IMG/VR virus record: IMGVR_UViG_2571042263_000006
Origin: a virus
Taxonomy: Duplodnaviria; Heunggongvirae; Uroviricota; Caudoviricetes
Direction: 5' to 3' (one strand)
DNA length: 8,571 bases
Shown: positions 1-8,571 of the stretch, piece by piece
How positions within the stretch are numbered: position 1 is the stretch's first letter
How the letters are laid out: the number at the start of each line of letters is the position of its first letter
Notes under the pieces: model-generated
Told to the model about the DNA's origin: nothing
The model's database searches: none
What the model saw: only the letters and a program-made list of their open reading frames with translations
Made by a program: the position numbers and the translations under genes

Positions 1-38
1 TGTGCCCCCATCGCGCTGGTGAAGAAAACAAGCTCAGA

Positions 39-258
39 TTTTTTGTAAAGAATCTGTCACGCTAAAAGATGTCGAACAAAAAACAACCTTCTTCATCATC
101 TTTTTTACATCAAAATAATTAAAAACAATCACTTATGCACATGATGATGATGACGATAAAATCAAAAAAATGCGCTTCTTTCCGCGCCGACCCGCCCCGT
201 GTTCAGGCCCACCCCACCAGGAGGACCCGCAAAAAAGGCGGCTGGTGCCGCCTTGTTG
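39..258. repeat. Copy A of a ~220-bp diverged direct repeat (conserved non-coding block plus terminator hairpin); partner at 2579-2797
   Basis: By-eye alignment with 2579-2797 shares TTTTTTGTAAA, AACAAAAAACAACC, ACTTAT, an (RTG)4-5 triplet run, ATAAAATCAAAAAAATGCGC, CCGCCCCGTG, CCACCCCACCAGGAG and a 6-bp-stem hairpin. Identity over the core is roughly three quarters (my estimate, not computed). Confidence 0.75.
231..252 (-). terminator. Rho-independent terminator downstream of the protease/capsid gene
   Basis: Plus strand reads AAAAAA-GGCGGC-tggt-GCCGCC; on the minus strand this is a perfect 6-bp GC stem with 4-nt loop followed by TTTTTT, starting 7 nt after the stop codon at 259-261. Confidence 0.8.
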
Positions 259-2148
259 TCATAGTGAATCGGTACCGCCTGATTTGACCATACCGCGATA
301 ATCCAGAGCTGCCACACCTGCATCAATACGGACTTTCCAGGCCACGCCGTCAACGATAAAACCTTCCTGCTGTTCAAGGTAAGGTTCGTCATTGCCATCA
401 AGATAAGCCACCTCGATTGTGTCCGTTCCCTGTGCGGAAAGCATGTACCATTGTTTTTCGCTGATATCATCAAGGCGGGGATCGACGATGATATCAAGTA
501 GCTTGTGATACGGGTTAAAGATCCCGCTGTTTTTATCAGCCCCGAAAGGTGCGGTTGAGTTAATCATCTGCAACGCGCGATCTTCCAGTGCTGCCGGAAC
601 TAAAAGGAATTTAGGCGCAATATTCAGCACTTCGCCATTTTTGTCCTTCTGTGTGCGCATCAGGTGACGTGCTGCACTAAGTCCCGGTGTTGTCAGTCCT
701 GCTTCAATCAGGTTGCTGTGTTTTTTGTCAAACAGCGCTATTCCGTCAGAAAGTTTTACGTTGCCTGTAAGCACCAGATTAACCAGATTTCCCACCGTTC
801 TTGATGCTGCACGGCCCATAGCCATTGGCACCGTTGATAACTGATCAAGGTCATCATTGATTATCGCCTGGCGGGTAATGCTGAAAATATTCCCGTAAGT
901 AGCCAGCGCGATGGGTTCACCGCGATCGCTGGTGGTGATGTATTTATATTCTGCCCCTTCCGGCACTTTGTTTAACGTTGAGAAGCCATTCAGACCAACG
1001 CGGCGGGCTTCCCGGAAGTTTGAAAGGGAACCTTTTTTCGTCCACTGGCGGAATGTTTCGCCGCTGTGCTCCCAGCCTGCAAGCACTGATTTTTCAGCGC
1101 CACCAGCAAGGATATCGGTAAAATCGCTGCTGCTGTGGGTGAATGCCGCGTTTACTATCTGCGAGCGTGTGCCGTAGCTGCCCGTGCTTATACCACGATG
1201 GGTTAATGATGCCTGTGCCATATCGAAAAGGCTCATCATGGCGTAAGGATTACCGCGTTCGGCCCGTTCGTGACCAAGACGCGCATTAAGCCCCTGACGC
1301 ATGGCATCGCCGGTTATATTGCCGTTATCCGTGTACGCGTAGTAAAGATTTGCGGGGGTGGTTTTGTTTGTTGGCGTTGATTCTTTACCCATAGCGAGTA
1401 AAAGGCGTTCGCGTGCATTCTCAACGCTACATTCTGAATCCGCAAGACAACTTATAGCCAGGTCGTTATATCTTCCGTTGAAGGTGCCAAACAATTCACG
1501 GATGCCGTTAAGTCGTTCCTGTTCGCCACTGCCAGTTTTCTGGCTGATCATGCTTTTAATTTTTTCCGGCATATTTGAAAAATCTCCGATTCGTTTTGAT
1601 TCAATTCGGGCCATTGCTGTAATCGCGGGTATAACCTCATCTGCGAAACCGTTAGCCTTACACTCATTGCCATCCATCCAGGTTTCCGCCTCCATCATGG
1701 AGGTGATTTCCTGTTTGCTCCTGCCCGTTCTTCCGGCATAGGTTTCTGCCATCGTGTCGCCCAGCTTGTCCATCAGATCAGCAAAGCGGCGAACGTCGCC
1801 CGACACTCCGGCAGTAACACCACGGGGGGCATGTATCATCATCATCGCGTTTTCAGGCATAACGATGTGATCTCCACACATGGCAATAAACGACGCCATA
1901 GAAGCCGCCATGCCTTCAATGTGTACGATTTTTTTTGCCGGATGATTTTTCAGAGCGTTATAGATAGCCAGCCCTTCAAAGATGTCGCCACCAGGTGAAT
2001 GGATGCGAAGATGGATTTCAGACGCATTACCACACGCGTTGATCTCGTCAGTAAGTGCCGATGCCTTTACACCGTACCCGCCGATCTCGTCATAAATGCG
2101 CACATGTACAACATCTGCCATAGCCTTAATGGAAAACCATGTTTTCAT
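259..2148 (-). CDS. Fused prohead (ClpP/S14-like) serine protease and major capsid protein, 629 aa
   Basis: N-terminal ~190 aa carries ClpP-type motifs: GMAASMAS (candidate nucleophile Ser83, codon ~1900-1902) and MMIHAP (candidate His106). The C-terminal ~330 aa is consistent with a phage major capsid protein, with a linker or scaffold-like segment between. ATG at 2148 has AGGAG 7 nt upstream and overlaps the upstream stop (ATGA). Family assignment from motif recall only. Confidence 0.85.
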   Translation of the reverse strand: MKTWFSIKAMADVVHVRIYDEIGGYGVKASALTDEINACGNASEIHLRIHSPGGDIFEGLAIYNALKNHPAKKIVHIEGMAASMASFIAMCGDHIVMPENAMMMIHAPRGVTAGVSGDVRRFADLMDKLGDTMAETYAGRTGRSKQEITSMMEAETWMDGNECKANGFADEVIPAITAMARIESKRIGDFSNMPEKIKSMISQKTGSGEQERLNGIRELFGTFNGRYNDLAISCLADSECSVENARERLLLAMGKESTPTNKTTPANLYYAYTDNGNITGDAMRQGLNARLGHERAERGNPYAMMSLFDMAQASLTHRGISTGSYGTRSQIVNAAFTHSSSDFTDILAGGAEKSVLAGWEHSGETFRQWTKKGSLSNFREARRVGLNGFSTLNKVPEGAEYKYITTSDRGEPIALATYGNIFSITRQAIINDDLDQLSTVPMAMGRAASRTVGNLVNLVLTGNVKLSDGIALFDKKHSNLIEAGLTTPGLSAARHLMRTQKDKNGEVLNIAPKFLLVPAALEDRALQMINSTAPFGADKNSGIFNPYHKLLDIIVDPRLDDISEKQWYMLSAQGTDTIEVAYLDGNDEPYLEQQEGFIVDGVAWKVRIDAGVAALDYRGMVKSGGTDSL

Positions 2149-2339
2149 AGCCAGGCTCCTAACGTTGCCCTGTACCAGTATTCAACCGCGCTGCGTGTGA
2201 TTTGTCCTTTCGTGGGCACTGGCATACCCGGGTGATTATCTTTGATGAACTGCTGATAGCGTTCGATCTTCTCCATAGTTCCGGCGTCTATGTGTACCGT
2301 GGCACTTTTATCCGGCTTTCTGGTGTTGTTCTCTGGCAT
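2145..2339 (-). CDS. Small hypothetical protein (64 aa) translationally coupled to the capsid gene
   Basis: Start moved from the ORF-track start (2372) to ATG at 2339, which has GGAGG 7 nt upstream. Stop TGA overlaps the capsid ATG. Function unknown; possibly a small DNA-binding or head-assembly accessory protein. Confidence 0.55.
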   Translation of the reverse strand: MPENNTRKPDKSATVHIDAGTMEKIERYQQFIKDNHPGMPVPTKGQITRSAVEYWYRATLGAWL

Positions 2340-2578
2340 AAATCCGCCTCCGTTTTGATTAACGGGCATCATTATTGATCGATAAAAGTAATAGATAAAT
2401 CATTTTCTACCTGAAAATCAGATTATGTTTTTTCTGATTATTCTCAGAGAGGCAAAGCCATTGACGCATTTTTGCTATTGAAGCAATATTAAGACTCGTC
2501 ATCCTGGCGATAAAAACTCCTTTGTCGTGTAAAAGCGCCTCCGGTAACAGCAATCGGGGGCGTTTTTTTTTGCGCCTG

Positions 2579-2797
2579 TTTTTTTGTAAATGTTTTCGGG
2601 AACGTTCCAGTGATGAACAAAAAACAACCTGATTCGACACTAAAAATTTTTATTCTTCAATATATCAATAACTTATAGTGGTGGTGATGGTGCCATAAAA
2701 ATCAAAAAATGCGCCTTTTTCCGCGCCCCTCCGCCCCGTGGACAGGCCACCCCCACCAGGAGTACCTACAAAAAAGCCGGATTGCTCCGGCTTCTGT
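2579..2797. repeat. Copy B of the ~220-bp diverged direct repeat (partner at 39-258)
   Basis: Same ordered conserved blocks as copy A. Its hairpin stem differs in sequence (GCCGGA/TCCGGC versus GGCGGC/GCCGCC) but is still a perfect 6-bp stem, i.e. compensatory changes. Confidence 0.75.
2770..2791 (-). terminator. Rho-independent terminator downstream of the replication module
   Basis: Plus strand AAAAAA-GCCGGA-ttgc-TCCGGC; on the minus strand a 6-bp stem with 4-nt loop followed by TTTTTT, about 75 nt after the stop of the 2867-3043 ORF. Confidence 0.75.
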
Positions 2798-2866
2798 CAC
2801 TCGTTGCTTAAAACGGTATGTTATCCCCGTACGGATCATCGTTACCCGCCTGTTGTTTTGCCCTGT

Positions 2867-3043
2867 TCAGTGCGTCAGTAGCCTGGCCCTGCTGGCCTTT
2901 TTTACCACCTGGTCGGGATGTTCCTTCGCGTATCCTTCCCCCGCGTGGCGGTCTATCGTTCTGATTGCCACCTTTAAGGCGTGCTCTGTCATGTCTAACG
3001 CTTTATATTTTGGCTCTGTTCTGTCTCTGTGTTTTTGAGTCAT
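2867..3043 (-). CDS. Small basic hypothetical protein (58 aa) immediately after the iteron array
   Basis: The ORF-track version (2867-3175) starts at a GTG inside the iterons with no RBS. ATG at 3043 is preceded by GAGGTGG, which is itself the reverse complement of the first iteron. Lys/Arg-rich. Function unknown. Confidence 0.4.
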   Translation of the reverse strand: MTQKHRDRTEPKYKALDMTEHALKVAIRTIDRHAGEGYAKEHPDQVVKKASRARLLTH

Positions 3044-3045
3044 TT

Positions 3046-3247
3046 GCCCACCTCTACCCACTTTTTTCGCCCACTTTTTACGTTTTCCCACTTCGTCCAA
3101 CGTGGGAAATTTGGGATTTATATCATCTTGTTTCATAAGTATTTTTTTAGTGCCCACTTTTTGGGATATATACACGTGGGAAAGTGGGTAATTTTGTTAA
3201 AATTACGTTAAATTGCCCACCTTTCCCACTTTTAATGCCCACTTTTT
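3046..3247. repeat. Iteron array, candidate origin of replication
   Basis: Eight direct copies of (G/T)CCCAC(C/T)TT with core CCCAC at 3047, 3057, 3070, 3087, 3153, 3216, 3225, 3238, plus three inverted copies (GTGGG at 3102, 3176, 3184). Two iteron clusters flank an AT-rich spacer (3110-3150) and sit immediately 3' of the replication gene, overlapping its stop codon. Confidence 0.65.
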
Positions 3248-4655
3248 ACAGTGGTCCTACATCATCACCGTCAATGTAGATCACGTCGTCTTTTTCCAGT
3301 TTGGCTAACCATCGTTTAAGGTGTTTTGTGTCATACCCCAGCTTTTTCATATCGTCACGTAACAGCGGGATCGTGCACTTGTCGCCGTGCTGTGTGCGTG
3401 AACGTATGCACCCCCATAGCGCGGTATGGTTTTCCGTCTTGTTCCCTGCCTCCTCGATGCGCTCCAGTTCAACGGGAGGGCGCGGCTTATCCACCACCAC
3501 CAGCGACGTGATTAACTCCCCGTCAGCGTCGGTAAAAAGCTCCACCACCCGCAAATCATAGGCAGCCTCTTTGAGTTCCTCCGCGTCCTTCATTTTGGTG
3601 CATGAGATAACCAGCGCTTCGCTTCCTGCGTCCTCCCTGCGTATCCGGTATTCAGCATCCAGCGAAGCACGAAATGCACTGGAACCGCGCGCGCCTTTCG
3701 TCTCATCCTTGCCGGAATGGTGAACCACCAGCACCGTGGCCCCTGTGCGTCGTTTCAGTTCGTCACAACCACGGATAAACGCCCCCATATCACGGGAATC
3801 ATTTTCATCATTCCCACCAAAGCAACGCGCCAGCGTATCCAGAATAATCATGCGTACAGGTTTACCCGTTTCCCGCTCCACCTGACGGGCAGCGATAACC
3901 ATTTCATCAATATCAAGCGGGGCAGCCGGAAAGATGGGACGGTTTACCAGATACAGATTTTTCACCTGCTCACCGTGCACAACCTCCCAGGCTTTTACAC
4001 GACGCGGAACGCCGATACCGCCTTCACCAACCACATAGAGAACAGCGCCATGCGCCACCCTGCGGCCTCCCCACTGGCGGCCCGTGGAAACGTGACACGC
4101 CCACGATCCGGCAAGGAATGATTTATAGGAACCGCTCGCCCCGTATATGCTGCAAAGCGACGATGCCGGAATAATCCCCTTTACCACGTAATCAAGCTGT
4201 GTGTCGTATCCGGTAGATCCAACGCTCATCGGTAGCGTGGTTTTTCGCTGGGGGATTTTTTTCATGACCAGGCTTTCCCCGCGTTCCCATGCCTCCCTAA
4301 GCCGTGGAAGCTGGTCGCTCCATTCCTCCAGCAATTCGAAATTTTCAGAAAGTAGCCGCGCCTCCTGGACTCCGGCGATCGCCAGTTTCGTGGCGATGGT
4401 TAACAGCTGCGGCTCTTCAATATTTCCGGCGCGTATCACCGTCGCCCTGTATCGCCCATCATCAACAATCTGGAGGTTATCCAGTTCGCTTAACTGATAA
4501 CGCCCCAGATAAACGGGAGGGACTGGATCTCCTGCTTTTTTTGCCTGTGCAATGATGTAATGCTCTGCGAATGAATGAGCATCAATACCCGCAAAAATAA
4601 TCGCATCGGTGTATTTATCTTTCGGTAATCGTTTTACGTTCGGTGCCAGTTTCAT
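3246..4655 (-). CDS. Replication initiator: RecA-fold P-loop ATPase / helicase (RepA/DnaB-like, AAA_25-type) with N-terminal domain of unknown function and probable C-terminal origin-binding domain, 469 aa
   Basis: Walker A GASGSYKS (res 172-179), Walker B RMIILD (res 268-273), VVHHSGKD (res 310-317). AGGAG 6 nt upstream of ATG at 4655. Start overlaps the upstream stop (ATGA). Iterons lie directly downstream. Confidence 0.85.
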   Translation of the reverse strand: MKLAPNVKRLPKDKYTDAIIFAGIDAHSFAEHYIIAQAKKAGDPVPPVYLGRYQLSELDNLQIVDDGRYRATVIRAGNIEEPQLLTIATKLAIAGVQEARLLSENFELLEEWSDQLPRLREAWERGESLVMKKIPQRKTTLPMSVGSTGYDTQLDYVVKGIIPASSLCSIYGASGSYKSFLAGSWACHVSTGRQWGGRRVAHGAVLYVVGEGGIGVPRRVKAWEVVHGEQVKNLYLVNRPIFPAAPLDIDEMVIAARQVERETGKPVRMIILDTLARCFGGNDENDSRDMGAFIRGCDELKRRTGATVLVVHHSGKDETKGARGSSAFRASLDAEYRIRREDAGSEALVISCTKMKDAEELKEAAYDLRVVELFTDADGELITSLVVVDKPRPPVELERIEEAGNKTENHTALWGCIRSRTQHGDKCTIPLLRDDMKKLGYDTKHLKRWLAKLEKDDVIYIDGDDVGPL

Positions 4656-4951
4656 TTTTTACTCCTGAATCCGTTAATCATGGTTTTCAGCTTCTGGATG
4701 TTTGCCCGTGCCCTGGCGTTGCTGGTGGGCACGTTATGCGGCGCGGTCTGTACCAGAGAAAAATCACGCCGGAACTGATAAACAGGCATCACGCAATCAT
4801 ATTCGTAACCTTCACGGCGGTAGGTTACGCGCCGTTCTTCCACGCCCTTAATCATTACCGTGCCGCCGTACTGGTCGCGGTAAATATCACCGCGCGTAAA
4901 TTTAGGGTGAGTGTTGCCACTGGCAGTTAAGCCAGAATATTTAAGTTTCAT
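4652..4951 (-). CDS. Hypothetical protein, 99 aa (possibly DUF4222-like, with YRD and GYE motifs)
   Basis: GGAGA 9 nt upstream of ATG at 4951; stop overlaps the rep start. Contains IYRDQYG and REGYEYD; the DUF4222 link is from memory and unverified. Confidence 0.65.
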   Translation of the reverse strand: MKLKYSGLTASGNTHPKFTRGDIYRDQYGGTVMIKGVEERRVTYRREGYEYDCVMPVYQFRRDFSLVQTAPHNVPTSNARARANIQKLKTMINGFRSKK

Positions 4952-4956
4952 TATTT

Positions 4957-5190
4957 TTATTCTCCGGTGTGCTGTTCGTTATATCTGTCGTGCAATGTCT
5001 CTATTTCCTGCAACTCATTTATTACAGGCTCAAGAAGCGTTATTAATGATGTAATAATCCGCGCCTTCTTTACATCACACTCATTATCGCCAAATGTTTC
5101 CAGCCACATTTGCAATATTTCGTACATACCTTCAGCGTAAGCAAGGGCACTAAATGCGCGGTCTATTGTTTCTTGGTAAATATCACGCAT
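4957..5190 (-). CDS. Small acidic hypothetical protein, 77 aa
   Basis: ATG at 5190 with GGGGA 5 nt upstream; starts 1 nt after the stop of the upstream ORF. Predicted helical and acidic. Confidence 0.6.
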   Translation of the reverse strand: MRDIYQETIDRAFSALAYAEGMYEILQMWLETFGDNECDVKKARIITSLITLLEPVINELQEIETLHDRYNEQHTGE

Positions 5191-5191
5191 A

Positions 5192-5413
5192 TTAATCCCC
5201 GTCCGTCGTTTTTCTTAAAATAACTTCTGTCACGAAATCAGCATAATCGGCAGCAATACTCAGTACGTCTATTCCAGTTGATTTATATTCTTTCGTGCCA
5301 ATTAAGAAAAAAGATGCTCTAATCAGTTCGGATATTGCAGAAAGCGCATCACTCGCATCATCAGATACGCCGGAAAATTCTTGTTTCAGGGAATTAAAAC
5401 GATCATCACGCAT
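5192..5413 (-). CDS. Small acidic hypothetical protein, 73 aa, starting 2 nt after a G9 tract
   Basis: ATG at 5413; the only upstream purine-rich element is the G9 homopolymer. Its frame differs from the upstream ORF and the two overlap by 28 nt. Confidence 0.5.
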   Translation of the reverse strand: MRDDRFNSLKQEFSGVSDDASDALSAISELIRASFFLIGTKEYKSTGIDVLSIAADYADFVTEVILRKTTDGD

Positions 5414-5628
5414 AACCCCCCCCCATTTTCACAATCAGCAATAAGAATATTTTTAGCGTCATTCAGCGACCGTGTGGCGGTGTATCGGATACATTCCAGG
5501 GCGAACTGTGTCCGGTCTTTCTGTTCTTCTCCCTGCGCAAGCTCTGCCGTGCATTCAATATCAATAAGCGCGTGCATCAGCGTAGTGAGCGCGGCGGCGG
5601 CTGCGTCCGGTGTGGTTTTATTGTGCAT
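5386..5628 (-). CDS. Small hypothetical protein, 80 aa, possibly the 5' part of a frameshift-split gene
   Basis: ATG at 5628 with GGGGGA 5 nt upstream (the ORF-track start at 5670 is not an ATG). Reads through the G9 tract and stops 28 nt into the next ORF. Confidence 0.5.
   Translation of the reverse strand: MHNKTTPDAAAAALTTLMHALIDIECTAELAQGEEQKDRTQFALECIRYTATRSLNDAKNILIADCENGGGLCVMIVLIP
5416..5424 (-). repeat. Homopolymeric tract, nine G on the coding (minus) strand, C9 on plus
   Basis: Plus strand 5416-5424 is CCCCCCCCC. It encodes Gly-Gly-Gly near the C-terminus of ORF 5386-5628 and lies 2 nt upstream of the ATG of ORF 5192-5413. Confidence 0.9.
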
Positions 5629-5818
5629 AGGTTTCCCCCTGGCGAATACGGGCGGCAAATACAGCAACACAACCGGACGGGCAACGGCTACGCGCTTCGC
5701 GTTCCGTCCAGGCGGTTACGTGGATGATTTGACGGTCTGACGCGCCGACGGCAATAAAGCGCCACACAAAGGCCGTTTGTGTGTGTGCTAGTCGTGGAGT
5801 ATGATTTACGGCAACCAT
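5618..5818 (-). CDS. Small hypothetical protein, 66 aa, possible first gene of the early operon
   Basis: ATG at 5818 preceded by GAGGAG 5 nt upstream. GC-rich, Ala/Arg-rich; no recognisable motif. Could instead be a structured 5' leader. Confidence 0.35.
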   Translation of the reverse strand: MVAVNHTPRLAHTQTAFVWRFIAVGASDRQIIHVTAWTEREARSRCPSGCVAVFAARIRQGETYAQ

Positions 5819-6016
5819 AACGGCTCCTCGTTTACGTTGTTGGTTAGAAGCCCCGTTACTGCTCCAACAGTGCGGGGCTTCGTCGTTTCAATTGCTGAAT
5901 TGCATGTATCAGCTCTTGTGGTATTCAGATTACATTTAAGTGAATACCATTTCAAGCTTTTTTGGGTATTCACTTTTGTGTTACACTGCATCCCGCTATT
6001 AATCGGAGGTGCAAAC
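5819..6016. promoter_or_regulatory. Divergent control region between the early operon (minus) and the Arc-like regulator gene (plus), with candidate operators
   Basis: 9-bp inverted repeat GAAGCCCCG (5847-5855) / CGGGGCTTC (5872-5880). GGTATTCA at 5920-5927 and 5965-5972 with the inverted copy TGAATACC at 5941-5948. No confident -35/-10 assignment could be made. Confidence 0.5.
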
Positions 6017-6322
6017 ATGTCCACGAGTTCTGTTAACAATAAGTCACAGCAACTGAATGCCAGATTTCCACATGAAGTAGTGAGTGGCATTGAGGCATCC
6101 CTACAGCCAGGGGAAACTAAAGCGAATTTTATAGTTACAGCAGTACGCGGTGAGATCGCCCGCCGCCAAGCAGAAGGAAGAGGAGAAAACCCCCTGGTTT
6201 CTTCGCTCGATGCACTGGCGCAGGTGGAAAAAATCGGAGTCAAAGCAGCCGAGGAGATCGGGCAACTCGTCACCATCGCGCGTGAAGAACTCCAGCGTCG
6301 CAAGACCCAAGAATCAGAATAA
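6017..6322 (+). CDS. Arc/Mnt-like ribbon-helix-helix transcriptional regulator, 101 aa
   Basis: ATG at 6017 with GGAGG 7 nt upstream (ORF-track start 5801 rejected). N-terminal LNARFPHEVVSGIEA matches the Arc-type beta-strand and first helix pattern (Arc: FNLRWPREVLDLV). Tandem stop TAATAA. Confidence 0.7.
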   Translation: MSTSSVNNKSQQLNARFPHEVVSGIEASLQPGETKANFIVTAVRGEIARRQAEGRGENPLVSSLDALAQVEKIGVKAAEEIGQLVTIAREELQRRKTQESE

Positions 6323-6379
6323 TAACTATCAGCGCCGTGGCGTGAGGAACTCCGGCGCATTGCTTTACAGGTCGGCACT

Positions 6380-6589
6380 ATGAGCAAAAAATACCTATCC
6401 ACTGAAGAGATTTTCGCAGAACAACGAAGATTGCTTTTACAGAGCATTGTTGCACGCCAGAAAGAAAAGGCACACGCTAAACAAATGCCACCAAATACAG
6501 AACCAGCGCCTACAAAATTTGCGCTTGATGAGTTTCTCAATAAACAGCCCCGGGTAATGAAAGCTAACAGGAACCGCCCACCAGGCTGA
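6380..6589 (+). CDS. Hypothetical protein, 69 aa, downstream of the Arc-like gene
   Basis: ATG 57 nt after the Arc-like stop with only a weak AGGT RBS. Non-repetitive composition; no recognisable motif. Confidence 0.4.
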   Translation: MSKKYLSTEEIFAEQRRLLLQSIVARQKEKAHAKQMPPNTEPAPTKFALDEFLNKQPRVMKANRNRPPG

Positions 6590-6653
6590 TCACATTGCCC
6601 ACCAGCCAGCAAATCGCTATGATGGCTGGGCTTATGTTTAGTGTATTCCCACT

Positions 6654-6684
6654 GGCGGCCTCTGATCCGGGTCGCCTTTGTTTT
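6654..6684 (+). terminator. Candidate rho-independent terminator for the plus-strand regulator operon
   Basis: GGCGGCC (6654-6660), 9-nt loop, GGTCGCC (6670-6676, one G-U pair), then TTTGTTTT. It sits between the convergent plus-strand operon and alpA. Confidence 0.4.
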
Positions 6685-6703
6685 ATGTGTCATATGCCCC
6701 CCT

Positions 6704-6913
6704 TTACGCTGCCTTGCCTGAATTAATGCGATCCCGGCTTTTAACCCATTCCATAACCTCGGACAGCAGCCAACCTACAGAACGACCGCCCAGATTACGG
6801 CGTGACGGGAAATTCCCTTTTTTCTCCAGTTCATAGCGTGTAGTGCGACACACTCCAGTTAACTTACGACATTCATCCTCACGGATTACGCGATCTTCAT
6901 TTATTTCACGCAT
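6704..6913 (-). CDS. alpA: AlpA-family phage transcriptional regulator / excisionase-like DNA-binding protein, 69 aa
   Basis: Translation contains the AlpA-family core LTGVCRTTRYELEKKGNFPSRRNLGGRSVGWLLSEVMEWV. Positioned downstream of int on the same strand, as in CP4-57 and P4-like islands. Confidence 0.85.
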   Translation of the reverse strand: MREINEDRVIREDECRKLTGVCRTTRYELEKKGNFPSRRNLGGRSVGWLLSEVMEWVKSRDRINSGKAA

Positions 6914-7332
6914 ACAAAAACCTACATAAAAAATTACGTATATAAACTTTTCTCTTAGCTGTAGATATATGAGATCGGATATTACTTAGATTCTTTTTTC
7001 ACCTCTTAAATTAAAAACACAACCTTGCTAAAGGCTTTGTTCGCTAAGGTTCGTAGAAGCTCGTTAGTGTTTAAAATCGTGTCACGAGTTTTTAAGCGAT
7101 GCAACAAAAAATGTCGTTATTTGGCATTACGCTTGAATTATCTCATTAAAAACAAATAGATAAACCATCAAGTGTTGGAACAATCAAGAAACAGAGAATA
7201 AAAGTTCAGAAGAAGACATTCCAATTTTTTGATGGTTGACATATATAAAGCGAAGATATTTGCAGATATTTTCCGATATTCTACGATTTATTCACGGCTG
7301 TAATCTCTTAAAGAAAAAACAGCCGTAATTTG
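6914..7332. promoter_or_regulatory. AT-rich int-alpA intergenic region, probable alpA promoter/regulatory region
   Basis: About 420 bp, markedly AT-rich with no ORF of 60 aa or more. Direct repeats GCTAAAGG (7027-7034) and GCTAAGG (7043-7049), then TTCGTAGAAG and CTCGTTAG. Promoter elements not confidently assignable. Confidence 0.4.
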
Positions 7333-8571
7333 TCAAGGATTTTGGGTGTAAATTCGCGGGGTCATAACAACGATTTTTTCATCATTGTTCTGGAGAAGCT
7401 CGAGACGGTCTACCCATAGATTAAGAGCATCACGTTTTGCATCAAGATAACGGGAGTGGTTATAGACTCGTTGCATCCCCGGCATCTGGTGGGCGGTAAG
7501 CTGCTCGACAATATGCGGATCCACGCCTAAATCGTTCAGCATGGTTGTAAATGTGTGCCGGATGTCATGCAACGACCAGGGGGCTTGATTAATGCGTCTG
7601 TGTGCCGTTCTTCCGTACTCTGCTACGGATGATTGCCCTTTCAGTTCTCCAAGCAATAAGCCCGTGTGCCTGTTCTTCTCCACCAGCTTCATGACAAACG
7701 GCAAGATCGCTTCCGGTATTGGCCTGAATATTGCTACCTTCGTTTTGCTGTGTTCTTTCGGCACAGTCCAGAGCATTTCTTTAAAATCCCATTCCTGAAC
7801 CTCGGAGCGTCTTAGCTCAGTGGTACGGCATCCAAAGACAATCAGAAGGCGAATTAAGGCGCTGTAGTACGGCGGGAAAATTTTTTCATCCAGTGCGCGG
7901 AGTAGCTCGCCAAGCTCCTTGTTTGTTAGCACTCGCTCGCTTATTTCTGCTTTTTTTCCCACATCACCTACGACCATATCATCAAGAACGTTACTGACGG
8001 CGTAGCGACGTTTACGGCAGTACTTAAGCGCCTGCTTGCATACCTGCAACAAAAAGCCGGCTGATACCGGATTACGCTTAGCAAGCTGGTCAAAACAGGC
8101 CAGCCAGTGGCGTAGCTCGCATTTATCCAGCGGCATAGCACCAATCTGGCTGATTATGTGCTTATTGATCCGGCTTTTCAGTGATTCGTGGTCAGTGCGC
8201 TTTTCCTTCGCGTATGACTCAAGCCAGTAAGTGATCGCGTCCTTAACCGTTACAGGTGCTAACGCTTCCTGCACTGTGTGATTAAGCTCATGGCGTGGAT
8301 TTTTCCCCTCTGCCAGCCAGGCGCGACACTGTGCCGCTTTTTCTCTGGCTGCTTTCAGGCTCAGATCGGGATAGTTGCCCAGTCTCAGGCGTTCCGGTGA
8401 TACCTGCCTGCCAGTTCCGGCCCTGTAAGTGAAATACCAGGTTAACAGGCCATTGGTTGAATGCCTTACGCTAAGGTTGCCACCATCATTAAAAAAGGTG
8501 TTTTTTGTGGTTGGTGATCCGCTTAATTTTCGTAAAAGAGTGTCGCTAAGTCTATGAATTGCCCTGCTCAT
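7333..8571 (-). CDS. int: P4-type tyrosine integrase (site-specific recombinase), 412 aa
   Basis: N-terminal arm-binding-type region (LSDTLLRKL...FNDGGNLSVRHSTNGLLTWYFTYR) and C-terminal catalytic motifs HDIRHTF (H-x-x-R) and VYNHSRY (Tyr nucleophile region). The first ATG is the last three bases of the window, so the true start could lie just outside. Confidence 0.9.
   Translation of the reverse strand: MSRAIHRLSDTLLRKLSGSPTTKNTFFNDGGNLSVRHSTNGLLTWYFTYRAGTGRQVSPERLRLGNYPDLSLKAAREKAAQCRAWLAEGKNPRHELNHTVQEALAPVTVKDAITYWLESYAKEKRTDHESLKSRINKHIISQIGAMPLDKCELRHWLACFDQLAKRNPVSAGFLLQVCKQALKYCRKRRYAVSNVLDDMVVGDVGKKAEISERVLTNKELGELLRALDEKIFPPYYSALIRLLIVFGCRTTELRRSEVQEWDFKEMLWTVPKEHSKTKVAIFRPIPEAILPFVMKLVEKNRHTGLLLGELKGQSSVAEYGRTAHRRINQAPWSLHDIRHTFTTMLNDLGVDPHIVEQLTAHQMPGMQRVYNHSRYLDAKRDALNLWVDRLELLQNNDEKIVVMTPRIYTQNP

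Follow-up and report, generated by a model that had tools for sequence, protein, structure and literature searches.

Among the phage-inducible chromosomal islands (PICIs) of Gram-negative bacteria, EcCICFT073 is the prototype, and two further islands, EcCIIHE3034 and EcCI18098, were placed at cspD-clpS, with the att core ATGATAGTTAT, by Fillol-Salom et al. (2018, Table S1; PMC6092414). In SatelliteFinder, the PICI core consists of an integrase, a regulator, a primase-replicase, a capsid morphogenesis component and terS, and tail, holin, portal and connector genes are forbidden. We analyzed a stretch of 8,571 nucleotides recorded in IMG/VR as a Caudoviricetes virus (IMGVR_UViG_2571042263_000006; referred to below as the window), in which an initial annotation had recognized an integrase, AlpA, a replication initiator with an adjacent iteron origin and a protease/capsid gene, all of which were found in place. 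The window very probably represents 8.57 kb of a 9.79-kb PICI of the EcCICFT073/EcCIIHE3034 family, inserted by its own integrase between clpS and yljB/cspD, with a life cycle that would depend on a helper phage. The proposal of the initial annotation, a helper-dependent satellite with a capsid gene and not a full prophage, is supported by the gene content, the att core and the collinearity with EcCICFT073.

Borders and family assignment of the island

The window is present at 100% identity in Escherichia coli chromosomes such as that of MS6198 (NZ_CP015834.1, region ~1,003,300-1,013,150), and at least 80% of it is held by 22 of 5,426 complete E. coli genomes. Borders were determined in RefSeq record NZ_CP042934.2 (locus L001, taken with 15 kb of flank on each side, so that a window coordinate is the L001 coordinate minus 15,000), which differs from the window by a single nucleotide polymorphism (SNP) at window position 3671. 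Here the neighbors of the element are clpS and clpA on one side and yljB and cspD on the other. Alignment with K-12 MG1655 revealed an empty site with a single TGATAGATAACTATCATCTAT, compared to two imperfect copies in the island-bearing chromosome, where 21-bp direct repeats at L001 13949-13969 and 23739-23759 bound the island. One repeat copy in K-12 and two around the island mean that the inserted element is 9,790 bp long; the portions lying beyond the window are 1.03 kb on the clpS-proximal side and 170-190 bp between the start of the integrase gene and attR. The att core of EcCIIHE3034 and EcCI18098 is the reverse complement of the center of this 21-bp repeat. The initial annotation had expected att direct repeats next to a tRNA or ssrA target; the repeats were located, but the target is an intergenic 21-bp site upstream of clpS, and a tRNA/tmRNA scan of the window found none. 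Inside both island ends lie paired repeats, TTAACTACACC in two copies, of the form AATTAACTACACCATT[A/G]ACTACACCG. Given the Arm-DNA-bind_3 domain of the integrase, these repeats probably serve it as arm-type sites.

The record used for the borders is labeled Escherichia coli 042 (taxid 216592) and comes from Switzerland, with a genome of 4.69 Mb and a locus near-identical to that of dog and cat isolates from Bern. It is unlike the 5.2-Mb enteroaggregative E. coli (EAEC) prototype 042 (FN554766), and its strain label or taxid may be misleading. Identity of the island with the published EcCI042 (EcCIO42) was considered and rejected, EcCI042 being located at tqsA in the 5.2-Mb EAEC 042 genome.

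No tail, lysis, portal or terminase gene was found in the window, in the 1.2 kb of island beyond it or in the 15 kb of flank on each side, where only core genes are present (clpS, clpA and infA on one side; yljB, cspD and macAB on the other). The lack of tail, lysis and terminase genes noted initially for 8.6 kb thus extends to the whole island, and the flanks hold no contiguous set of such genes that would have turned the element into part of a prophage. Searches with Pfam, PHROGs and NCBIfam detected no tail, holin/lysis, portal or head-tail connector family in any open reading frame (ORF), and the hallmarks of a lambdoid prophage (immunity repressor, lysis cassette, terminase, portal and tail), or fragments of them, are absent from the island and its flanks. 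When the SatelliteFinder definition is applied to the gene content, four of the five core components are present, only terS being missing, and none of the forbidden ones, a "Type B" composition that still counts as a PICI; the length of 9,790 bp falls within the PICI size range of ~8-15 kb.

Comparison with the closest relatives agrees. EcCICFT073 and the island are collinear, with backbone proteins 46-96% identical, and the two have in common an AlpA-controlled unidirectional operon, two cos sites, a capsid gene, an origin 3' of the replication gene and the lack of terS. EcCIIHE3034 has the same order as the island: int, alpA, YlcI, icd-like gene, small ORFs, DUF4222, replication gene with origin, (ssb), capsid module and a gene for a 93-aa protein. 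On gene content and order, we therefore assign the island to the classical Gram-negative PICIs, in the EcCICFT073/EcCIIHE3034 lineage. The initial annotation had left the family open: a capsid-forming PICI (cf-PICI) can be set aside for lack of portal, connectors, HNH, terS and terL, and a P4-like satellite for lack of psu, delta, sid, epsilon and alpha.

Is such an island still moving? When locus L001 of the Swiss "042" lineage was compared with L015 over the whole locus, the islands of this lineage and of MS6198 proved to be the same at all but 1 of 9,811 positions, with flanks that diverge by 1.6-4%. Near-identity stops 92 bp past attR, and on the other side the tract runs into the highly conserved clpS region. 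A single SNP within the island against diverged flanks fits recent site-specific acquisition.

Packaging signals and the capsid fusion gene

In a megablast search of the island against 50,697 phage records, only two segments gave matches, both of them noncoding. The first cos site, cos A1 (33-254, minus strand), is of the lambda type and follows the capsid gene's terminator hairpin (232-254); its cosQ-cosN motif lies at 192-228 and its cosB-like part at ~33-190. It shows ~85% identity over ~200 nt to the DNA just upstream of terS in phages of the Stx2_95/VT1-Sakai type. A second lambda-type site, cos A2 (2615-2793, minus strand), is more diverged and has a cosN-like CACGGGGCGGAGGGGCGCGG at ~2721-2740; it is a direct repeat of cos A1, with 79% identity over 99 nt plus flanking pieces. 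Alignment with lambda identifies cosQ (GGGTCCT-like) and cosN (ACGGGGCGG...CGCGG) in both, and cos A2, like cos A1, can be aligned with the Stx2_95 segment upstream of terS. The cosQ-cosN motif is also matched in other PICIs, namely, twice each in F11, WCHEC and EcCICFT073 and three times in IHE3034; the two matches in EcCICFT073 are presumably cos1 and cos2, published as functional. In F11 and WCHEC, cos copies occupy both cos A positions, and multiple cos sites are a trait of this family.

A third cos-like region, cos B, lies beyond the window (L001 ~14150-14420) and is of the HNH type. It shares ~80% identity, including a 40-bp perfect core, with the HNH-terS intergenic region of YYZ-2008-type phages, which is where cos is located in HNH-dependent packaging systems. 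All three cos elements have the same orientation. cos B was found at an identity of at least 95% in ~46 E. coli genomes; the carriers inspected are all cspD-clpS PICIs with varying head modules, one of them lambda-type, and the region is absent from the F11 island. cos B may give the island access to a second type of helper.

How the island would be recognized by a terminase is a separate question, since EcCICFT073 has a cosB unlike that of its helper and needs RppA (c1503) to retarget the helper TerS (PMC6739421). In contrast, the island has a helper-like cosB and no homolog of Rpp, a protein regarded here as able to stand in for a small terminase: tblastn searches of the island with RppA of CFT073, with the DUF1441 TerS of F11 and Stx2_95 (DUF1441 is the TerS family of mEp460 and Stx2_95 phages) and with the Nu1-type TerS of IHE3034 returned nothing, nor did searches for Rpp homology among PDB sequences with the 93-aa and 75-aa proteins of the island and the 137-aa protein of IHE3034. 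Because the cosB part of cos A1 is helper-like, the helper TerS could recognize cos A1 directly, so that neither a TerS nor an Rpp protein of the island would be needed.

The capsid gene (259-2148, minus strand) encodes a 629-aa fusion of a ClpP-like prohead protease, a scaffold linker and an HK97-fold major capsid protein (NF045540, 6e-268; CLP_protease, 3.7e-33; Phage_capsid_4, 8e-55; phrog_133, 1.6e-280). The fusion is of full length, with the Ser and His motifs of ClpP retained (GMAASMAS and MIHAP). The lambda E-like capsid protein of EcCICFT073 (c1499) and its decoration protein found no counterpart in the island by tblastn. Amino acid identity of the fusion is 63% to those of the F11 and WCHEC PICIs, 53-55% to those of Stx2_95 and mEp460, and ~51% in tblastn searches against Stx/mEp460-type phages. 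Pairwise ratios of nonsynonymous to synonymous substitution rates (dN/dS) are 0.09-0.19, so the gene is under purifying selection. Comparison of window positions 259-2148 with loci L006, L007, L023, L004 and L008 revealed that 31-36 residues of the Pro/Ala-rich linker at the protease-scaffold junction are missing in all four PICI copies, from E. coli and Klebsiella, and kept in all three phage copies; accordingly, the best 25 phage matches all have ~653 codons for ~622 query residues. The PICI fusions also have substitutions in common (GNITGDA versus GNFVGDG in phages; ILAGGAEKSVL versus ILLDVxNK). The common linker deletion and substitutions suggest a long-standing satellite lineage of the fusion gene and argue for a function of its own.

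In Klebsiella (loci L021-L023), a lambdoid prophage has its ClpP-capsid fusion gene interrupted by a PICI, which leaves a 193-aa N-terminal fragment and a ~555-aa remainder. This PICI encodes an integrase, AlpA, DUF4222, a primase, a small-ORF homolog, its own ClpP-capsid fusion and a DUF1441 fragment, and its insertion matches the published helper-embedded PICI site C:CLP_protease:110, which along with tRNA-Ile2 is among the types of PICIs carrying a CLP_protease/capsid gene (PMC10111431). Insertion in a lambdoid ClpP-capsid gene ties the module to that type of helper.

Two small genes accompany the capsid gene. A small ORF (2145-2372, minus strand; phrog_4934, 1.8e-51) encodes 75 aa, or 64 aa from an internal Met, and overlaps the start of the capsid gene by 4 nt. 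Its homologs number only 12, all enterobacterial, and the Klebsiella one again lies directly upstream of the PICI ClpP-capsid fusion; no match was found in the 50,697 phage records. Just beyond the window start (L001 14719-15000, minus strand) is the gene for the 93-aa protein (phrog_1561), which had no match in Pfam, PDB sequences or the same phage records. It is the last gene of the PICIs of CFT073 (83% identity to the terminal protein of EcCICFT073 by tblastn), IHE3034, F11 and WCHEC. In a cf-PICI-like island (L013), the last position, adjacent to cos or att, is again taken by this gene, at 96% DNA identity; together with part of the end region, it is 90-96% identical to the end of that island.

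What would a satellite do with a capsid gene? Our best guess is that the fusion modifies or competes in helper head assembly, as Ccm of SaPIbov5 does. A genome of 9.8 kb would need small heads or ~4 copies per full-size head, and EcCICFT073 is packaged as multimers in full-size heads (PMC6092414). A bolder scheme, which we put forward as a rather doubtful one, makes the satellite fusion a size determinant that would coassemble with or replace the helper head protein on the helper portal to yield small heads fitting a 10-kb genome, a condition intermediate between classical PICIs and cf-PICIs, while three cos elements of two unrelated types would open the island to two terminase systems.

Replication, integration and regulatory genes

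The replication initiator (3246-4655, minus strand) is a 469-aa RepA-family helicase (AAA_25, 7.7e-44; phrog_2850 over its full length, 2.9e-223), as opposed to the primase of related PICIs. Its first 131 aa are 46% identical to the N terminus of the EcCICFT073 primase, while the remaining protein and the iterons differ; perhaps this N-terminal domain, common to the RepA helicase and PICI primases, binds a partner rather than the origin. The comparison was made between window positions 3246-4655 and L017 4742-6496. Directly 3' of repA, at 3020-3250, ~11 iterons with the core AAAGTGGG form two sets around AT-rich DNA. All seven matches of the window to CCCACTTTT with at most one mismatch fall within 3057-3246, and 11 of its 26 GTGGG/CCCAC pentamers within the 231 nt of 3020-3250. 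The same layout is found with other iterons in CFT073, F11 and IHE3034 (CTGTCTACC) and in WCHEC (CTGTTCACC), and an iteron origin 3' of the replication gene is the published layout of Gram-negative PICIs (PMC6092414). The iteron pattern and its position make a convincing case that 3020-3250 is the predicted origin of replication. The RepA replicon is common: 661 E. coli genomes contain at least 80% of it, and one instance is an O157:H7 PICI located at the EcCICFT073 site.

Between cos A2 and the origin, 2808-3136 (minus strand) holds remnants of two genes, ssb (its 3' end) and the ORF located before ssb in related PICIs, annotated in RefSeq as two partial pseudogenes. According to blastn and tblastn comparisons with the F11 and CFT073 islands, an internal deletion of ~425 bp fused what is left of the upstream ORF, its N-terminal part, to the last 41 aa of Ssb.

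The integrase gene (7333-8571, minus strand) encodes a 412-aa tyrosine integrase with an arm-binding domain (Phage_integrase, 2.6e-18; Arm-DNA-bind_3, 7.7e-17), 77% identical to the EcCICFT073 integrase by tblastn and equal in length to the EcCIIHE3034 integrase ECOK1_0883. Downstream of int and on the same strand is the gene for an AlpA-family regulator/excisionase (6704-6913, minus strand; PF05930, 2.9e-16), with 59% identity to AlpA of EcCICFT073 (tblastn). The int-alpA region is 92.5% identical at the DNA level to that of the F11 island at the same site. The 419-bp spacer between int and alpA (6914-7332), upstream of alpA, is AT-rich (36% GC). It contains the only repeat reported by a tandem-repeat finder in the window, a 10-bp unit, AGATATTTGC, in 2.7 copies at 7254-7287, which is possibly an operator or regulatory site; the iterons were missed by this program because they are spaced too widely.

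A long leftward operon starts with the gene for an Icd-like protein (5618-5818, minus strand; NF033153 phage_ICD_like, 6e-18), 47% identical to its EcCICFT073 counterpart. Upstream of it, in the leader (5848-5944, minus strand) between the divergent YlcI and icd-like genes, is a strong GC-rich hairpin, AAGCCCCG...CGGGGCTT. In Rfam, this hairpin gave only a subthreshold match to RsaJ, and a search of the whole island at E <= 1 found no immunity RNA like C4 of P1 or CI of P4 upstream of the icd-like gene; other matches over the island were subthreshold and due to chance, and the cspA thermoregulator model matched on cspD, outside the island. Next come three small conserved PICI ORFs (4957-5628, minus strand) of 77, 73 and 80 aa, belonging to PHROG families of unknown function and 73%, 85% and 96% identical to EcCICFT073 ORFs.

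These are followed by the gene for a 99-aa DUF4222 protein of the RgdR family (4652-4951, minus strand; PF13973, 1.6e-24). Its DUF4222 counterpart in EcCICFT073, presumably c1493 judging from its place in the c-number order, is 93% identical, and the protein has an RGD at residues 20-22, the place described for RgdR/ECs1581 and C1493 (PMC3378721). In enterohemorrhagic E. coli, RgdR activates the LEE (locus of enterocyte effacement) and type III secretion and represses motility (PMC3378721). With this member of the RgdR family, the island thus carries a virulence-regulator cargo gene. PADLOC found no match to a defense system.

Divergent from the main operon, 6017-6322 (plus strand) encodes a YlcI/YnfO-family protein (NF041551, 1.3e-16), 47% identical to an EcCICFT073 counterpart of the same position and orientation and possibly a small DNA-binding regulator. 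This protein and the 75-aa ORF both contain a strand-helix-helix-like pattern. The Arc-like regulator of the initial annotation could not be verified: neither protein had a sequence match in Pfam or PDB, and their AlphaFold models are of low confidence and gave no basis for a fold search, with predicted local distance difference test (pLDDT) scores of 66 for the YlcI/YnfO protein (single sequence) and 61 for the 75-aa ORF (10-sequence alignment). A hypothetical ORF of 69 aa (6380-6589, plus strand), an annotated coding sequence without family matches, is followed by a terminator-like hairpin at 6654-6676. In a consensus scan for promoters and terminators, promoter matches were fewer than expected from shuffled sequence.

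Proposed life cycle and comparison with known satellites

In the life cycle that we propose on the model of the characterized prototype, a superinfecting or induced helper phage would trigger alpA; AlpA would turn on the leftward operon and, together with Int, excise the island, after which the RepA helicase would fire the adjacent iteron origin to give concatemers. The TerS and TerL of the helper would then recognize the lambda-type cos, whose cosB part closely mimics Stx2_95/VT1-Sakai-type lambdoid phages, and the DNA would be packaged in heads and tails made by the helper. Each of these events, from induction by a helper to packaging, is inferred, as is any part played by the capsid gene. 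Indirect support for helper-dependent transfer comes from the helper-like cos sites and from the near-identity of the island across diverged lineages.

Several observations weigh against this picture. The cosQ-cosN motif scan recovers cos A1 and not cos A2, in which cosQ is degenerate. A second place matching cos A or cos B was not found in the listed carriers of the 100% identical island, and these hosts therefore give no sign of a resident helper whose cos would match. The DUF1441 TerS of the relatives F11 and WCHEC is absent, 595 bp in those islands corresponding to 108 bp here, and this loss, together with the ssb deletion remnant, means that the island could be partly disabled. The near-identical tract shared by the two lineages could also have resulted from generalized transduction followed by homologous recombination. 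Finally, deletion of the nonhomologous capsid gene of EcCICFT073 affected neither transfer nor interference (PMC6092414), and the capsid gene here may be dispensable as well.

The island might accordingly be a PICI by descent that now decays, no longer mobilizable, stranded by the loss of terS and ssb and persisting by vertical inheritance or chance recombination. An ssb of which a 3' fragment is left, joined to the upstream ORF, the shrunken place of the DUF1441 terS and the lack of an evident prophage with a matching cos in the listed carriers all fit such decay, but int, alpA, rep, the iterons, the att repeats and both sets of arm repeats are intact, and cos A1 retains cosB, cosN and cosQ with a helper-like cosB. 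Also against decay, EcCICFT073, likewise without terS, transfers efficiently, the island shows one SNP in 9.8 kb across lineages whose flanks diverge by ~2%, and the capsid gene is under purifying selection. We consider this course of events unlikely. A cf-PICI, or a minimal version of one that makes small capsids from a single fusion gene and steals the remaining parts, would explain why a complete protease-scaffold-capsid fusion is encoded, why the genome, at 9.8 kb, is so much smaller than that of a helper and why the 93-aa gene, with part of the end region, matches the end of a cf-PICI-like island at 90-96% identity. The defining portal, adaptor/connector, HNH, terS and terL genes are absent, however, all of which are present in that island (L013), and a capsid without portal and terminase cannot package DNA, whereas their supply by a helper is the very condition of a classical PICI; this makes a cf-PICI very unlikely.

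Descent from a cryptic lambdoid prophage, of which deletion would have left the end of the head genes and int, is extremely unlikely. Islands of this kind were formerly annotated as defective prophages, and lambdoid Stx and mEp460-type phages have homologs of both the fusion and cos; yet the island matches PICIs gene for gene in order and content, its ends are precise att repeats, its 75-aa and 93-aa proteins are unmatched in the phage records, fragments of repressor/cro, lysis, tail and terminase genes are absent, and the fusion belongs to a satellite-specific clade with its common deletion and substitutions. An integrase, AlpA, an Icd-like gene, cos sites and a size of ~10 kb, as well as the "P4 ancestry" ascribed to related islands in the older literature, might suggest a P4-like satellite, a reading that we find hardly credible: Psu, Delta, Sid, Epsilon and the Alpha primase-helicase were not detected in Pfam, PHROGs or NCBIfam, the cos sites are of the lambda and HNH types and not of the P2 type, and with int, alpA and a replication gene the island has only two of the seven P4 core components.

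With a classical helper-dependent PICI as the preferred reading, a seemingly odd, capsid-bearing mini-element becomes a standard enterobacterial PICI whose borders, att site, origin and packaging signals are now fixed. The combination that the initial annotation suspected to be uncommon is so as an exact mosaic, found in 22 of 5,426 genomes, but not in its parts, given the 661 genomes with the RepA replicon and the fusions of other PICIs; each module is common, and only their joint occurrence is rare. At one and the same att site, E. coli PICIs shuffle replicon, capsid and packaging modules. The capsid/cos module tracks the helper type, with lambda E/D genes, Nu1 TerS and lambda cosN in one combination and the ClpP-capsid fusion, DUF1441 TerS and Stx-type cosN in the other. 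The cos mimicry would make Stx-converting and related lambdoid phages likely helpers, which bears on the spread of the RgdR virulence regulator, and the satellite-specific fusion clade with its conserved linker deletion offers a handle on the purpose of PICI capsid genes.

Among islands at the same site, EcCIIHE3034 differs in its primase replicon, CTGTCTACC iterons, intact ssb, lambda E-type capsid and D-type decoration genes, Nu1-type terS and lambda-type cosN, compared to the RepA helicase, AAAGTGGG iterons, ClpP-capsid fusion, lack of terS and Stx2_95-type cosN of the island; locus L019 has the same modules as EcCIIHE3034 (primase, intact ssb, lambda E/D-type head genes and Nu1-type TerS). 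EcCICFT073 has another att site, ycfD-phoQ, different capsid and replication modules, and perC, which is absent here. F11, at the same site as the island, and WCHEC035123, at a tRNA-Ile site, combine a primase and ssb with the ClpP-capsid fusion and a DUF1441 protein. Together with the Klebsiella PICIs, they share the fusion clade and linker deletion of the island, but a primase replicon and a TerS of the DUF1441 family, the latter reduced to a fragment in Klebsiella, are retained there and missing from the island.

The comparison extends to satellites with better-known capsid genes. The cf-PICI EcCIEDL933 (Alqurainy et al., bioRxiv 10.1101/2022.09.08.507074) resembles the island in its backbone of int, alpA, replication genes and ssb and in having a capsid protein and a protease; cf-PICIs add a portal, head-tail connectors, HNH, TerS, TerL and capsids of their own, and none of these genes is found in the island. 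SaPIbov5 is likewise a cos-packaged satellite with a diverged homolog, Ccm, of the helper major capsid protein (PMC8569155). It belongs to an unrelated Gram-positive lineage, and Ccm lacks a protease domain; its resizing of heads was shown experimentally, whereas a role of this kind is hypothesized for the island fusion. Overall, the island is a new mosaic of known modules and not a new kind of element, and its residual novelty is the pairing of dual cos types with a satellite-specific capsid-fusion clade.

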